Source of the DNA: Ostreococcus lucimarinus
Lineage: Eukaryota
DNA: 64,000 bases
Assembly (NCBI GenBank): GCA_000092065.1
Contig: CP000592.1
Strand: one strand, 5' to 3'
Under the pieces are notes generated by a model. It searched no databases. It was not told where the DNA came from and was given only the letters and a program-made list of their open reading frames with translations. A program made the position numbers and the translations under genes. Of the stretch, positions 57,611 to 64,000 are shown piece by piece. The stretch's first letter is position 1; every line of letters begins with the position of its first letter.

Positions 57611-60599
57611 CTACGTAGTCGCGGGCGCTTCAGGCGCCGGTGCATGCGCATCATCGACGGTTCCTTCGATGGAAGTAGTCGCGTGCACTTCGTGTGCCGG
57701 TGCATCCACGTCATCAGTGTCCATCGGCGCGGGCGCGGCCACAGGTACGCCCGGAACCGTTTTGGTTTGCAGCGGGTGTGCACCCCCCTGCTCTTGCGTG
57801 GGTTTGGCGTCGCCTTTCGAGTATTTCATGTCGACAAAATGAGTCGCTCGATAGTCATCGATCATCGCCACGTAAGCGAGCACTTCTTTCATCGAACGTA
57901 ATTTGTGGCCGCTTGGTGAGAGGAATTCTTTGTACGAAGTCCCCGCAAGACGTCCACCTTTTCGCTCAAACACGTCTACACGCCAGCCGCGACCGCGAAT
58001 GTCGATATTGGGCGCGTGCTTTTCGACATACGCGTACAATTTCTCAAGTTCGCTCGCTGTCGCGTTTCTGACGGCGAATTTCGTCTCGCGAACCTCGCTG
58101 ACTGGCTTCGCGGCGGTCGTTTTCGGCTTCTTCAACTCCAACCGATCTCTAAGTCGCACATTCTCCTCTTGCAGAGCGCGTACTTTCGCGCGCGAACTGT
58201 CGAGCTGGAACTCACGAGTTTGCACGCGTACTCGTAATCTTTCGAGCTCTCCTGCGTATGATTTCATTTCCTCTACGCTCACGGTGGAAGAGCCGTTGAT
58301 GCCCCTCTTAATATTCTGATCAATATAACGCGCATTTGCAGCGCGTTCCTCCGCGAGTTCTGTCTCGAGCTGCACGAACTTTTCCTCGAGAATCTTGAAG
58401 AAGCTCTCATCGATGACGGTTGAGAGCGCTTTGGGAACTCGAACCATCTGGTTTGGCTCTGCTTTGACATCAGGACGCTCCATATTGCTTTCTTCTTTCT
58501 CAGTGACTGTTTTCTTTGCATCTGCCGCTGCCGCGACTTTATTGACCAAAAGTGGAGGAACGGCAATAGCAGGCGAAGGCTCGACCGTTTGATCATCGAC
58601 CGCAGTGCGCACTTGAGCCTCTCGCATTAAATTCTCGCGCCGCGACACCGCAGTCGGTGCGGACGTCGGTGCGGAGTGGAACGCGTCGCCAGTGTCCGTT
58701 TCCGTTCTTGTCGGCCCGCGTGCGTCCGCTGCGGCGTGCGACGCTAGCGCAGGAACCACGAATTCCTCGTCTTCAATTCTAGTTTGCCATTGATACTCAA
58801 ACTCTCTTGACATGATGCGCGCCATCTTGAACACTGGCGTGTCGTCTTTGTTGTAAGTCATCGCATTGGACCAAACCAGTCGAACGTCGGCGGCGTACGC
58901 CTCGACATTTTTCTCGTCGTAATACCCCGCGTCGATGCGTTCTTTAATCGTACCGAGATCCATCGGATTTTTAATGACTTCGAAGTAGTCTGGAATCTCC
59001 CAGTACACCGGATCGACTGGACGCAAGAAAATGTACGCGTTCTTGTGTACCATGAGAGAGCGATGAATCGACTTGATGCGGGTAAGTGGGGTCGCGACAC
59101 GTCCGCCTTTCGGCCTACCGCGCGGCGCTGGAGCCTTATTCGCACCGTCGCTCCCTCCATCTTCATCGTCTTCGTCGAACGAGCTAGACTTGTGCAAACG
59201 TTTTCGTCGCTTCGCCGTTTGCTTCAAAGACGTCGTTCCCGCGCCGCGGCCGCCGCCGCCGGCTAAACGATACCTTTGAATACCGAAATAATAATCCTGC
59301 ATGCATTGCACTAGATGACGCTTGAACTTTTGATAGGTGATGTCGGCCTCCTTGAATGCTTGTTTGTTGTGTGTCGGTTCCAAGGAGTCCGCCTCGATGA
59401 CACCGATCATATCCTTCATCATTGTGTTCGCCTGCAGCTGCGAACCGAAGCGTTGGTGCATGCGAATCAATCGGTTCTTGTTGTAAATGTGGAACCCACA
59501 CTTCTTCGAAGTTTCATCCGCGGCGTATCCGATGTGAATCGTGATTCCCGCGTCCAAGCCTCGCGGCTTGTACTCCGGAAACACATAATATTCTCGCGCG
59601 AGATGCGCGATCGGGTCTCGCGGCACGACTGGTCGCCCGCGAAGCGTGAATTCGCACCGCGGTTTCAGGTACAAAATTTCCATGTAAGCACGTAAACTAT
59701 AGTCTTCCTGCACATCAATCGACGCCTGCTGGCCTTCGCGCGATTGTTGGAAAATCGGTCCGCGCACCGCTCGCTCGTCATCTGGGATAGCCCCCACCAG
59801 ACGAATGTCATCCTTGTAGCTCGTGAAATCCAACTCGGGCGGATCGCGCAAGTTGAAAAGTACGATGCGCGTCCCGTGTGAACCTCTTATCTTGTCCAAC
59901 TCTCGCATCAACTGTGGCTCCGAGGGTACGAATGAATATCGCAAGATCACAGACATGTGTTCATCCCATTTTTTCGTATTCGCTGGTTCGCTCGCGACGT
60001 ATGAAACCCTGCCGCCAGTCGTCGCGTCTCGCTCCATCCTCCACGAAAACATCGGAATCAGAATGTCGTCCAGCTCGGCGTCATCTAAAAACGTCTGTGA
60101 CAGGAACGCGACGTGGGCGTACCCATCTCTTTTCGTCAATATCAACGCGTCTCGCGCCAATCGCATCGATCCAGACTTAAAACCGATACCAAACCGCCCG
60201 ACGTTCCCAGCCTTGTGTTCCTTGTCGCTAAAACCAAACGACAGCATGCCGACCAGTCGCCGACGATCCATGCCCACGCCGTCGTCTTGAACGATGATGC
60301 CCACATTATTCTTGGGATCGACCATTTTAGAAAGCTCTACGACGTCGACGTGTACGGCTTTGGCTCCACACTCCGCGTCTTGCGCGCTACGTTCGAGCGA
60401 GAGCGAACGCGCGCGTCAGTCTCGCGTTCCGTCGCGTCGAAACGAAGAAAATCGAGCGAAAACGAGATTCACCGCGCCTCTCAAAATCGCATCGCTCCGC
60501 TTCGTAAACGCACTTATCGATCAGTTCCGCGAGCGCCCCTAACGGCCACACGTGACTCGTGGCGTTACCTGCGCTCAAAAACGACGCGACGCTCCGCAT
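57611..60599 (-). CDS. MORC: MORC-family GHKL ATPase fused to a bromodomain, a coiled coil and a methyl-CpG-binding domain. Two exons: 60599..60514 and 60386..57611 on the minus strand.
   Basis: Spliced N-terminus: MRSVASFLSAGNATSHVWPLGALAELID|NAQDAECGAKAVHVDVVELSKMVDPKNNVGIIVQDDGVGM..., which matches the MORC N-box/D-box (human MORC2 …[26 protein letters not shown]…FLDDGCGM). GRFGIGFKSGSMRLARDALILTK is the G-box region. Bromodomain: KNAYIFLRPVDPVYWEIPDYFEVIKNPMDLGTIKERIDAGYY...VWSNAMTYN. MBD: RGRGWRVDVFERKGGRLAGTSYKEFLSPSGHKLRSMKEVLAYV. Confidence 0.8.
60387..60513 (-). other. MORC intron (127 nt, phase 2). The donor is GAT AA|GTGCGT and the acceptor is GTAG|C, with a GACTGACG motif about 27 nt upstream of the AG.
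   Basis: Splicing joins AA + C to create the invariant Asn codon of the GHKL N-box (ELIDNAQDA). Without the intron the first exon (ORF 60387..60599) and the main ORF are in different frames. Confidence 0.75.
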
Positions 60600-61297
60600 C
60601 AGTCAGTCTTCAGTCTCCGCGACTCGCCGTCTCCGCGATCGTCCCGATTCTCCGCGATCGCGCGCCGCTTTCCCCGCGTTTCCCCCTCACATCTCTCACG
60701 CACTCTTCAGCATCCGCGGGTGCGCCTTCGAGTGTTCCATAGCTCGCGCATCTCTCTGTCGATCCACGTCGAACGTCACTCCGGGAGCCGTCGCGCGCTC
60801 TTCCTCCTCCTCGCCGTCCCGTTCGTCGCCGACGCGTTCCAGCCCCGCCAGCTCCACGCGTTGTGGTTTTTGCTTCCGTCTCTGCGTCGTTCCGTCCCGG
60901 TCCCACCGTCAGTCGTCCGCGACGCGCGAAACCGTCGCATCCGTCTCCTCCCGCGTCCGCGTCGCGCGTCGCGCGCGCGCGCCGCGACGGTCGCACCATT
61001 CCGCTCGACGTTCGCCCGCGCGCGTCCCGTCGCGAACCGATTCACGAAAACCCGCGTCGACGCGCCGATCCCGCGAATCGCCCGCCGTCGCGCGCGCTCG
61101 CGGCGCAATAATTTAACCCGCGCGTCGCGTCGCGCGCGCGACGTCGTTCGCGCGCGCGCGACGAAGTGCCGCGCGCCGTCGCGGCGTCCGAGCGCGGGCA
61201 ACAACGCGCGCGTTCGGACGCACGAGGACGCGCGACGCCGCCGTCTCTCGGCGCACACGCGCGCGCGCGCGACGCGAAGATTTTTCTCCGCCTCGGC
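60600..61297. promoter_or_regulatory. Putative bidirectional promoter / extremely GC-rich (CGCG-rich) spacer between MORC (-) and the CotH-domain gene (+).
   Basis: About 700 bp between divergent start codons. It contains only Arg-rich artefactual ORFs. Confidence 0.3.
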
Positions 61298-64000
61298 ATG
61301 GCGCGCGATCGGCGCGATCGAGCGTCGCGCGCGGATGGGACCGCTCGAGCGAACCCTCGCGGGCGCGCGCGCGCGCGAGGCGTCGTCGTCGTCGTCGCGG
61401 CGTGCGCGGCGATCGTCGAGGCGGCGGTCGTCGAGGACGCGACGAGTCGGTCGATCGGGTTCGTCGCGACGGGCGAGGACGCGGTGGTGCGCGCGCGGGT
61501 GGTGACGGATCGGTCGCGGGCGAGGACGCGGGTGTCGGCGCGGTGCGCGAAGGGGTGGGAAGGCGAGACGCGCGTCGAGGCGCGCGACGACGGACGATGG
61601 CCGGACGACGTCGCGAACGACGGCGTGTACGCGGCGAAGTGCTCGACGGATGGTTTGCGAGCGGGTGAACGCGTGCGGTGGCGATGGGAGGTGGAATCGC
61701 CGGAACGCGCGTTCGCGCCGACGGGACGGGCGAGATATTACGGGACGGTTCTCGAAAAAGATTTAAGAGCGGATACGAGTCTGAGCGTCGTGCACGTGTT
61801 CGCCCCGGACTATCGGAAGATGACCACCGACGAGGGCGAACGGGTTGGGGTGTACTTTGAGGGGCGGTATTACGACGACGTCCTCATGCGCCGACGAGGA
61901 TCGAATCGTAAGGAAGCCGTGATCGGGGTCGATTTGTCCGCCGCGAATTGGCCCAAGCACAAGTTTAAGCTCGATTTTCACGGTCGGGTGTTCAAGTTCG
62001 ACGAGAACGAGCGCAAGGTAGAGGAAATTAATTTGCAGTCGCATTATCAAGAGCCAGGGGAAGAGACGTACCTACGCGAGAATCTCGGATTCGCCATACT
62101 GCGCCGCGCCGGCGTGCCGGCGTCGCTGACCAAGCACGTACAAGTCCGCGTGAATAACGAGTTCTACGGATTATTCTCGTTGATCGAGCAAGTCGACTCG
62201 ACTTTCCTTCGCCGGAACTATCTCGATCCTGAAGGAGCGTTGTATAAGGCGGTGAATTGGAAGTACAGCAATCTTCGAGCGGGAGATCCGAACCTGCCTT
62301 GCCCGTACGCTACGCCCGATTACAAGCGAGAATGGATGAACGACGGTTGTCCGGAAATCTATCGTAAAGCTTCAAAGGCGAATCGTGACAATTGGGACGA
62401 TTTGTGGGAGCTCACGCAAGTGATCGAGCGCGTACGCAGGAATCCCGGGGGCGAGGCGTACTTGCTGTACGATCATACCAATCTTCCCGCCTTGGTGAAC
62501 GAAATGGCTGCACAAACGCTCATGCTCGGAGCCGATCGCTGTACAAAGAACTACTACATGCACAAAGACTGGACGGGCGAATGGTCGCGTATTCCGTGGG
62601 ACGTGGAAGACGTGTTTCCGGGAGATAAACGATACGGCATCGACCTCTGTAAGTCGAGTGAATGCGACAAGAAATCAACCGCGTATTGCATTCTGTCGTG
62701 CGAAAAGTTCAACTCGCCGCTGTACTGCGACCGAAATCATCCCCAGGACATCTTTTACGCTCAATCTCCCGAGCAAGACCCTCGATCAACGTACAATGTT
62801 CTCATAGACGTTATGCTCGCAGTCTGGCCAGTCAAGGAGATGTACTTCACCCGCTTGCGCACGCTTATGGATGAGATTTTGGCAACGTCGTTCATCGACG
62901 ACTACGCGAGGCGCACGTTGAACATTATACGCAAAGATGCTCTGCGGGATTCAGAGAAGTGGGGGGTCGGCGCCGTGCGAGCTATCGACCAAGGCGTGCT
63001 TCAGCTGCTCTCGCAAATCGTCCCGAAACGCCGAGACCAATTGTTCAACCAATACAGCTCCATGATACCATCGTCGACGCCTTCGAATGCGCGAGTGTAC
63101 GTCTCACACGCGCAAAAGAATGGCGTTGAAGCGTACGTCAAGATTAGTAATCCGAACGGCTATGCCGTGGACGTGTCGTTTTGGATAGTCGAAACTCGAG
63201 GCGGGTGGAAATATACGCTGAAACCGGGCACCGTTCTCGGCGCCGGTCGCACCCTGTTCGTCGTCAGGGACGCGAAAGAATTCAGACGTCGCGCGACGTG
63301 GGCTCGCCGCGAATACCCCGAAGGCGTCTTCGTGCAAGGAAATTTCCAATCTGATTTAGACACAGATGACGTGAATATGATTTCTGTGACAAGGACATCC
63401 GAGCGCGTCGCCGCGCTCAACGGACGTGGGCGCGCGTTCAGACGGTTTCGACCACGCGTAGGATTCGACAACACTTCGTGCGCGCTCCCAGATGTCGGTC
63501 CTTGGAGCGAATACGGTGATTGCTGCGCCGAAGGCAAATGCGGTTTGTGGTGCGGCGTCCAAAACGCCGCGCGAGTTCGACGTCGAGACGTGAACATCAC
63601 GCTCGGACTTGATCCGAACGATTTACCGCAGTGTTTGGTCCATAGCTATGAGATTGATAGACGCTGCGCGAGCCTTGAGTGCGGCACGCCGAGACCGCCG
63701 AACTCGACGGCGTGTCGAATTCCCTCGAATGAATCGTTTGTGCGTCTCTCGCGAAACGACCAAAGCGTCATCTTTAGTCCGATTTTCGGCTTGAACACAC
63801 GCACGTGGGAGGATTGGAGTTACAAGGTGGAAGTCGCACCGCACGACGCGCACGGCGTCGATGGCGCTTCAAAGTCGTTGAAAATCCTCGTACACTCGGG
63901 TGGTGGTTTGGCGTTTCGAGCGACGGCGCGAAACGACACTCGGCTCACTTCCGCACACTTCTGGATCGCGAGACACGCCCCGCCCCAACCCCTTCCGCGC
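61298..64000 (+). CDS. Secreted / type-II-membrane CotH kinase-like domain protein with a lamin-tail domain and TSP1-like Cys-rich repeats. 3' partial: it runs off the window and so is absent from the ORF track.
   Basis: Frame 2 is open from ATG 61298 to the window end. There is an in-frame TAA at 61109..61111 upstream. N-terminus: MARDRRDRASRADGTARANPRGRARARGVVVVVAACAAIVEAAVV, a signal anchor. CotH motifs: YFEGRYYDDVLMRRRGSNRK...WPKHKFKLDF...YLRENLGFAILRRAGVPASLTKHVQVRVNNEFYGLFSLIEQVDSTFLRRNY...GALYKA. LTD: EAYVKISNPNGYAVDVSFWIVETRGGWKYTLKPGTVLGAGRTLFVVRD. Also PWSEYGDCCAEGKCGLWCGV and further Cys-rich repeats with N-glycosylation sequons. Confidence 0.7.
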   Translation, partial: MARDRRDRASRADGTARANPRGRARARGVVVVVAACAAIVEAAVVEDATSRSIGFVATGEDAVVRARVVTDRSRARTRVSARCAKGWEGETRVEARDDGRWPDDVANDGVYAAKCSTDGLRAGERVRWRWEVESPERAFAPTGRARYYGTVLEKDLRADTSLSVVHVFAPDYRKMTTDEGERVGVYFEGRYYDDVLMRRRGSNRKEAVIGVDLSAANWPKHKFKLDFHGRVFKFDENERKVEEINLQSHYQEPGEETYLRENLGFAILRRAGVPASLTKHVQVRVNNEFYGLFSLIEQVDSTFLRRNYLDPEGALYKAVNWKYSNLRAGDPNLPCPYATPDYKREWMNDGCPEIYRKASKANRDNWDDLWELTQVIERVRRNPGGEAYLLYDHTNLPALVNEMAAQTLMLGADRCTKNYYMHKDWTGEWSRIPWDVEDVFPGDKRYGIDLCKSSECDKKSTAYCILSCEKFNSPLYCDRNHPQDIFYAQSPEQDPRSTYNVLIDVMLAVWPVKEMYFTRLRTLMDEILATSFIDDYARRTLNIIRKDALRDSEKWGVGAVRAIDQGVLQLLSQIVPKRRDQLFNQYSSMIPSSTPSNARVYVSHAQKNGVEAYVKISNPNGYAVDVSFWIVETRGGWKYTLKPGTVLGAGRTLFVVRDAKEFRRRATWARREYPEGVFVQGNFQSDLDTDDVNMISVTRTSERVAALNGRGRAFRRFRPRVGFDNTSCALPDVGPWSEYGDCCAEGKCGLWCGVQNAARVRRRDVNITLGLDPNDLPQCLVHSYEIDRRCASLECGTPRPPNSTACRIPSNESFVRLSRNDQSVIFSPIFGLNTRTWEDWSYKVEVAPHDAHGVDGASKSLKILVHSGGGLAFRATARNDTRLTSAHFWIARHAPPQPLPR

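Follow-up and report, generated by a model that had tools for sequence, protein, structure and literature searches.

The 64,000-nucleotide stretch of Ostreococcus lucimarinus DNA analysed here (contig CP000592.1 of assembly GCA_000092065.1, hereafter the window) ends inside a nuclear protein-coding gene on the plus strand, which occupies 61298..64000 and encodes a member of the CotH family. The window holds residues 1-901 of a 993-amino acid (aa) protein, and the intron-free coding sequence continues past the window edge. From its N-terminus the protein comprises a putative targeting segment, a beta-sandwich, the CotH kinase-like domain, a lamin-tail domain (LTD), a single Cys-rich module and a jelly roll that resembles carbohydrate-binding modules (CBMs). 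An initial annotation, made from the sequence alone, had proposed a secreted CotH-kinase protein in a green alga. The host is confirmed by the divergently oriented neighbour at 57611-60325 on the minus strand, whose product is an exact match to XP_001420833.1 of O. lucimarinus CCE9901.

Translation of the window bears out the claimed frame of more than 900 codons: 901 codons without a stop run from ATG 61298 to the edge, and the peptide strings quoted earlier (RYYDDVLMRRRGSNRK, WPKHKFKLDF and VNNEFYGLFSLIEQVDSTFLRRNY) are all present. The frame was correctly recognised as truncated at its 3' end, and it was missing from the list of open reading frames (ORFs) only because that list omits ORFs cut by the window edge. 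Upstream, the frame is closed by a TAA at 61109-61111 and open from 61112. The 62 codons of 61112..61297 are very GC-rich and contain no Met. The first in-frame ATG is therefore that at 61298, and the stretch before it is a 5' leader, in frame but outside the protein in this genome. The complete gene is present on four metagenome contigs with 99.7-99.9% nucleotide identity over 9 kb, which places the stop codon about 279 nt beyond the window edge; contig L001, which is 99.9% identical, carries the 3' end. When the 901 residues from the window are joined to the last 92 residues of the database representative, P0001, the resulting 993-aa sequence is exactly that of P0141, an entry of the protein collection that occurs on 39 contigs and is labelled 'hypothetical protein'. 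Therefore, independent gene calls also use ATG 61298. Among the collection entries examined, no NCBI, UniRef or UniProt accession was seen for the 993-aa protein. Given 72 homologues in the database and a Pfam CotH match at E=5e-33, the frame is not a chance one, and we state the reality of the gene and the identity of its domains with very high confidence.

The CotH kinase-like domain extends over residues ~156-586 (61763..63055). Pfam family PF08757 matches residues 215-571 with E=5.2e-33 and a score of 115.3 bits (cutoff 23.8), a match that takes in profile positions 8-311 of 322, and a profile of the family matches the CotH protein of Bacillus cereus (5JD9) at E=3.5e-30. In the structural model this region has predicted local distance difference test (pLDDT) scores mostly above 85, and Foldseek matches it to 5JDA/5JD9 at E=6e-18, with a probability of 1.00 and a TM-score of 0.79 normalised to the target. 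The CotH assignment made earlier is thus upheld by both sequence and fold. The active-site segment, D413-R-C-T-K417-N418 followed by P433-W434-D435, is encoded by 62534..62602, with codons verified. Conservation of the catalytic residues, which the initial annotation had singled out as a check, is strict: across 43 aligned family members D413 and D435 never vary, and K220, K224, E297, K417 and N418 vary rarely or not at all. The residues of B. cereus CotH aligned with D413 and D435 are D224 and D247, and the D228Q and D251A mutants of B. subtilis CotH are catalytically dead (PMC7821199). By this correspondence, D413 is the predicted catalytic-loop Asp and D435 the predicted metal-binding Asp. 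Because these and the other active-site residues are conserved, the domain is predicted to be catalytically competent. With the profile match, the fold and the catalytic Asp pair all present, the protein belongs to the CotH family.

The CotH domain is flanked by two beta-sandwiches. The first, at residues ~44-151 (61427..61750), is all-beta in the AlphaFold2 model, with pLDDT mostly 76-94, and carries the motif DDGxxPDxxAxDGxY at residues 97-111, which is conserved in the family consensus, bacteria included. Matches of bacterial relatives by tblastn start near residue 59. A Pfam scan of the isolated sandwich returned nothing significant, and a weak NCBIfam choice_anch_X match covers residues 94-114 (23.1 bits against a cutoff of 25). 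The second is the LTD, at residues ~596-709 (63083..63424), with the core motif ISNPNGYAVDVSFW at residues 616-629. On the query itself PF00932 scores below its gathering cutoff of 34.3, with 27.6 bits for the whole protein (E=4.1e-6) and 31.6 bits for the isolated segment (E=2.3e-7), but all eight aligned homologous segments match the LTD when scanned one by one, the best at E=2.6e-16. Residues N618, A623, D625, S627 and P643-G-T-V646 are invariant in the corresponding alignment (A6), and the region is a confident beta-sandwich in the model. A search of PDB sequences with the LTD profile did not retrieve metazoan lamin tails, so the assignment rests on Pfam. The domain list of the initial annotation therefore holds for the CotH and lamin-tail domains, the latter by way of aligned homologues, and had overlooked the N-terminal sandwich and the C-terminal jelly roll, most of which lies beyond the window.

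That list also included Cys-rich modules like thrombospondin type 1 (TSP1), in the plural, and this part does not stand. There is one Cys-rich module, at residues 725-813 (63470..63736), marked by W736-x-x-Y739, C742-C743, C748-G, C752-G and R759-x-R-R-R763 and by N-glycosylation sequons at N725, N766, N802 and N811. It is conserved only in Ostreococcus-, Bathycoccus- and Micromonas-like orthologues, and when folded alone it is predicted to form elongated strands with pLDDT 57-86. No TSP_1 match was found in the whole protein with Pfam at E<=1, nor in nine isolated orthologous modules at E<=10, where a single TSP1_spondin match appeared at E=1.3. A profile of the nine modules retrieved no chain of a thrombospondin type 1 repeat (TSR) from the PDB at E<=10, hhalign against eight TSRs verified from PDB entries gave 18.6% probability over 17 columns, and there was no TSR among the fold matches. 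The idea of several TSP1 modules was rejected. Like the TSR (PF00090 / PF19028), the algal module has W-x-x-aromatic, C-x-x-x-C-G and R-x-R-R-R in TSR-like order and predicted elongated strands; unlike it, the module has a CC doublet and an extra Cys, a different Cys number and spacing, and a single copy. The resemblance is at the level of motifs only, and the module may be a distant relative of the TSR.

The C-terminal domain, at residues ~818-988, has its first half in the window (63749..64000). It has the conserved motifs WEDWSW, AR-x-x-x-PQPLPRL and W-x-x-GCY, and Foldseek matches its jelly-roll fold to solved carbohydrate-binding modules. The isolated domain has no Pfam match at E<=10, and its distant profile matches, at E 2e-9 to 5e-4, lie in proteins that carry CBM_11/CIA30/CBM_4_9. 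Because these links are indirect, the tail is described here as CBM-like in fold and is not placed in a CBM family.

The N-terminal targeting region (61298..61432) consists of a 26-aa Arg-rich tail followed by the sole hydrophobic segment of the protein, residues 27-45 (RGVVVVVAACAAIVEAAVV). In a Kyte-Doolittle scan this is the best 19-mer, with a value of 2.3, and the top eight windows all fall in the N-terminal segment. A hydrophobic segment of unrelated sequence recurs at the N-terminus of nearly all full-length algal homologues, as is typical of a targeting signal; P0030 is the one bacterial homologue with a clear segment of this kind. The segment claimed earlier as a signal anchor is thus present, and residues 27-45 are predicted to be a signal peptide or a type-II signal anchor. 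The CotH domain has eight Cys that are present in 10/10 Mamiellales sequences and in 0-1 of 23 bacterial ones; C464 and C468 are conserved across the chlorophyte clade, and there are nine further Cys in the C-terminal modules. The N-x-S/T sequons noted by the initial annotation are not enriched over the whole protein (6 observed against 5.0 expected); all six lie in residues 710-993, the last 284, where 1.7 are expected (P~0.003), and several are conserved among Ostreococcus orthologues. Among relatives, the bacterial homologue P0066 bears a dockerin, and CotH and LTD-CotH proteins of ichthyosporeans are present in a secretome (PMC4739763). The lineage-specific Cys, the clustered sequons and the extracellular relatives would fit a route through the endoplasmic reticulum (ER) and Golgi to the cell surface.

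The relationships of the CotH domain were examined with a neighbour-joining tree of 70 sequences over 365 columns, with 100 bootstraps. The query groups with Bathycoccus and with a group of shorter Mamiellales paralogues (~622 aa, CotH domain only) at a bootstrap of 99, and all named green algae (Bathycoccus, Chloropicon, Pedinophyceae and Dunaliella) fall with the query in one clade of 35 sequences at a bootstrap of 85. Gene context marks the nearest outgroups as bacteria: one lies by HU/Rrf2/prepilin genes and the other by LpxD/OmpH/Wzy genes, and both have the order LTD-CotH-LTD. Species-representative prokaryote genomes were also scanned, with a 9-sequence alignment as query, and yielded 39 loci, 38 of them in Planctomycetota, Verrucomicrobiota or Lentisphaerota at 27-36% identity. 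The full-length bacterial matches span residues ~59-705 and none extends past residue ~730; they therefore cover the sandwich-CotH-LTD core and not the tail. None of the 72 homologues retrieved is a fungal CotH protein, which makes fungal CotH the more distant. A search of IMG/VR viral contigs gave 275 pattern matches, none of which was confirmed as a viral CotH relative, so prasinovirus involvement is not supported.

Of the two sister groupings that had been suggested, bacterial or fungal, the bacterial one is therefore found, with bacteria of the Planctomycetota-Verrucomicrobiota-Chlamydiota (PVC) type, and neither fungi nor Bacillus take that place. Horizontal acquisition, which had also been suggested, is plausible as an ancient event, given that PVC bacteria are the nearest outsiders, but it is not specific to Ostreococcus, because the named green-algal homologues form one clade. 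The simplest reading is that the sandwich-CotH-LTD core was anciently shared between PVC-type bacteria and an early chlorophyte, and that the Cys-rich module and the CBM-like tail were probably later Mamiellales additions. We infer the direction of the ancient transfer. The algal monophyly and the donor lineage are provisional, owing to the limited homologue sample, the neighbour-joining method and the mostly unnamed tips.

Two side observations belong to the same survey. The locus outside the three phyla (L027, JABMRB010000498.1) is binned as Candidatus Nealsonbacteria, of the Candidate Phyla Radiation, which may reflect either faulty binning or a single stray transfer. At least four LTD-CotH-LTD paralogues are present in the Sedimentisphaerales metagenome-assembled genome PL23b_bin.68 (Planctomycetota; L008, L009, L013, L021), to which P0030 (L005) also belongs.

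The closest non-algal relatives, the LTD-CotH-LTD proteins of Planctomycetota, Verrucomicrobiota and Lentisphaerota, share with the algal protein the order of sandwich (DDG...DG.Y), CotH and C-terminal LTD, and are 28-36% identical to it over residues ~59-705. They usually have an extra N-terminal LTD and often Laminin_G_3, lack the Cys-rich module, CBM-like tail and conserved Cys, and are themselves uncharacterised. Bacillus CotH (B. subtilis; B. cereus 5JD9/5JDA) belongs to the same Pfam family, has the atypical kinase fold and both catalytic Asp, and acts outside the cytoplasm proper on a surface layer, as proposed here for the algal protein. The two are only ~16% identical over the fold alignment, and Bacillus CotH, at ~360 aa, has just one domain and lacks a signal, an LTD, a Cys-rich module and a CBM-like tail; the algal protein has lineage-specific Cys. 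We know of no homologues of the CotB/CotG substrates in Ostreococcus. The ichthyosporean (Creolimax) CotH proteins are, as the relevant passages of de Mendoza et al. 2015 (PMC4739763) relate, likewise eukaryotic, derived from prokaryotes and secreted, some of them with a fused LTD; they differ in being a separate acquisition with an N-terminal LTD, and no Cys-rich or CBM-like tail is described in those passages, which note CotH in other eukaryotic lineages too but contain no analysis of the green-algal clade. The CotH invasins of Mucorales, such as Rhizopus CotH3, are also eukaryotic cell-surface CotH-domain proteins with a signal peptide (PMC9973265), but their known role in pathogenesis is that of GRP78 ligands, and they have a different domain architecture. 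The likeness to animal Fam20C, Fam20B and POMK is confined to the proposed mode of action, in which a kinase-like fold preceded by a signal peptide or type-II anchor works outside the cell or in the Golgi lumen; these belong to a different family, and no Fam20 match appeared in any search of this analysis.

On this evidence we consider it rather probable that the protein is an active kinase of the secretory pathway or cell surface, guided by a glycan-binding tail. The N-terminal signal peptide or type-II anchor would bring the protein into the secretory pathway, where it would stay in the Golgi lumen or go on to the cell surface. Its portion outside the cytosol would then consist of the sandwich, the CotH domain, the Ig-like LTD, one disulfide-rich glycosylated spacer module and the CBM-like jelly roll. 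The CBM-like tail, and perhaps the LTD, would dock the protein onto a glycan or glycoprotein, such that the CotH domain could use ATP to phosphorylate a substrate that is secreted or lies at the surface. The proposed action would be analogous to that of CotH on Bacillus spore-coat proteins and to that of animal Fam20-type kinases.

Several points weigh against this account or its parts. The step from D224/D247 of B. cereus to D228/D251 of B. subtilis, and so to the dead mutants, is made by the identical 23-residue spacing and not by alignment, and conserved catalytic residues do not prove a protein substrate. Cry toxin domain III, ephrin receptors, reelin and NDUFAF1 share the jelly roll of the tail, so that the fold does not prove carbohydrate binding. 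The Cys-rich module has pLDDT below 50 in the full-length model, and an Arg/Ala-rich N-terminus might conceivably direct the protein to an organelle as a transit sequence. On the evolutionary side, the homologue sample was limited by the word index, and most tree tips lack a taxonomic name.

A broader proposal can be offered tentatively, and we hold it to be doubtful. The chlorophyte CotH family, derived from PVC bacteria and rebuilt with disulfides, glycosylation and a Mamiellales CBM-like tail, might constitute an independent extracellular or Golgi phosphorylation system that acts on surface glycoproteins or glycans of wall-less picoalgae, a green counterpart of Fam20/POMK.

The acceptor may also be the sugar itself, which we regard as unlikely. 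Fam20B and POMK are kinase-fold enzymes that phosphorylate sugars, and in a glycan kinase of this type the tail would bind a polysaccharide or an N- or O-glycan while the CotH domain phosphorylates a sugar hydroxyl. The CBM-type jelly roll at the C-terminus is consistent with this, as are its distant profile matches in proteins with GH44 or GH9 and CBM_11, and the dockerin of P0066 points the same way. CotH proteins have reportedly been noted in cellulosomes. The gene for P0030 lies directly 3' of GH116/F5_F8_type_C and Laminin_G_3/PIG-L genes, a context that may tie the function of the bacterial relatives to glycans. However, where the biochemistry of CotH enzymes has been worked out, they phosphorylate Ser-rich proteins (PMC7821199), the sequence does not discriminate between types of acceptor, and a CBM may merely localise the enzyme.

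Even if the protein acts at the surface, it might do so without catalysis, as a surface adhesin or ligand like Mucorales CotH3, with the CotH fold as a scaffold for contacts between cells, with particles or with viruses. The architecture is adhesion-like, with its Ig-like sandwiches, Cys-rich module, CBM-like domain and sequons, and Mucorales CotH proteins are said to serve as GRP78 receptors (PMC9973265). All active-site residues that are invariant in the family are nonetheless kept at 30-36% overall identity to the bacterial relatives, which points to selection on catalysis, and we give a purely adhesive role a small chance; adhesion and catalysis are not mutually exclusive.

The remaining alternatives concern where the protein goes and whether the gene is what it seems, and each is less probable than those above. 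An Arg/Ala-rich presequence followed by a hydrophobic stretch is also what chloroplast or thylakoid targeting would look like, in which case the protein would work inside the plastid; the lineage-specific Cys, the conserved clustered sequons, the CBM-like tail and the extracellular relatives fit the ER and Golgi better, and plastid targeting is very improbable. If 61298 to ~61860 were instead an untranslated leader, as the initial annotation had allowed, translation would start downstream and yield a cytosolic protein with no signal. The first 50 codons are indeed very GC-rich, with a GC content of 0.84 at first codon positions (GC1), and resemble the non-coding stretch upstream. Against this, the next in-frame Met is M175, inside a conserved region, and the confidently predicted sandwich, conserved in orthologues and in bacteria, precedes it. 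Residues 51-188 show a coding-type pattern, with GC content of 0.80 at third (GC3) and 0.55 at second (GC2) codon positions, and orthologues of 981-988 aa begin at the equivalent position with the same tail and hydrophobic layout. A downstream start was rejected on these grounds and is scarcely credible. That the gene is a bacterial contaminant, or was acquired recently by Ostreococcus alone, as the PVC bacteria as closest non-algal relatives might suggest, is effectively refuted, since the gene lies between eukaryotic genes on contigs of up to 136 kb (with TOM20_plant, RNase HII, RecX, trehalose-phosphate synthase and Sec24 neighbours at the same locus on four contigs) as well as on the reference chromosome, matches its neighbours in GC and codon pattern with coding-type GC1/2/3, has orthologues in Bathycoccus-, Micromonas- and other Ostreococcus-like genomes and relatives of the same clade in Chloropicon, Pedinophyceae and Dunaliella, shows only 28-36% identity to bacteria, and is found in four independent assemblies, which argues against a chimera.

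The favoured reading, an active kinase of the secretory pathway or cell surface, does not overturn current understanding. The gene extends a known family with a lineage-specific tail and represents no new kind of system. The Chloropicon and Dunaliella homologues are already labelled CotH in databases, and eukaryotic CotH genes acquired by lateral transfer, including LTD fusions, were reported in 2015 (PMC4739763). Searches of the accessible literature on CotH in Ostreococcus, Mamiellales and other green algae returned no relevant paper. What gives the gene its interest is that picoalgae may carry out phosphorylation outside the cell. Extracellular or secretory phosphorylation is well described in animals (Fam20) and in Bacillus spores (CotH) and essentially unexplored in algae, and this gene, its Mamiellales orthologues and the shorter paralogues suggest that abundant marine picoalgae keep CotH kinases with intact predicted active sites and secretory features. 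Activity of the protein would suggest that organisms without a wall phosphorylate their surface or the material they secrete, and this could bear on adhesion, on aggregation and sinking, or on virus attachment. The gene would also be a clean example of the old sharing of a domain block (sandwich-CotH-LTD) from bacterium to alga, later extended with eukaryote-specific modules.

The short Mamiellales CotH paralogues (L006 6001-8025, which is P0029, and P0018, P0023, P0026, P0034-P0038 and P0045) are about 600-675 aa long and have a signal-like N-terminus and the CotH domain only, with no LTD or tail. They form a group with 100% bootstrap support that is sister to the long form. One short paralogue lies in a eukaryotic context, adjoining an N-myristoyltransferase gene.

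Longer models of the gene arise from its leader. The interval between the divergent MORC-like and CotH genes (60326-61297) is ~970 bp long and rich in (GC)n, with an extreme GC content. In metagenome variants, an indel polymorphism links a second upstream frame to the gene and so eliminates the in-frame TAA at 61109-61111, and prokaryote-style gene callers then yield models of 1037-1182 aa (P0001, P0103, P0111) with a spurious Arg/Ala-rich N-terminus. P0001 (1182 aa) thus starts 189 residues further upstream than the protein described here; its Arg/Ala-rich extension is a translation of the GC-rich leader, is unstructured with pLDDT ~30, and belongs to the different upstream frame that is joined via an indel in the metagenome variant and closed by the TAA in the window. 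A gene model has also gone astray in Bathycoccus prasinos. The NCBI model P0015 (953 aa) lacks the first 51 residues of its 1118-aa metagenomic counterpart P0013, including the hydrophobic signal segment, as well as a 111-residue block that corresponds to residues 568-678 of P0013, in the C-terminal part of the CotH domain; elsewhere the two are 97-99% identical. The reference annotation of Bathycoccus therefore likely contains a mis-predicted start and a false intron at this gene.

The window differs from the four metagenome contigs at three positions in 2.7 kb, one synonymous and two non-synonymous, which is too few for selection analysis. The two non-synonymous changes are adjacent, in codons 173-175 (61814-61822), where the window has R173 and M175 (DYRKMTTD) and the four contigs and the orthologue P0002 have W173 and I175 (DYWKITTD). 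The R173/M175 allele is real, given that the exact sequence occurs on 39 contigs. Past the window edge, directly 3' of the CotH gene, lies a 239-aa ORF (L001 13677-14396) with no Pfam match, which is kept in position in 4/4 contigs at 229-239 aa. On the other side, the 904-aa product of 57611-60325 (-) combines a MORC-type GHKL ATPase (HATPase_c_3, Morc6_S5) with a bromodomain and a weakly matching methyl-CpG-binding domain, an unusual fusion of chromatin reader and ATPase.

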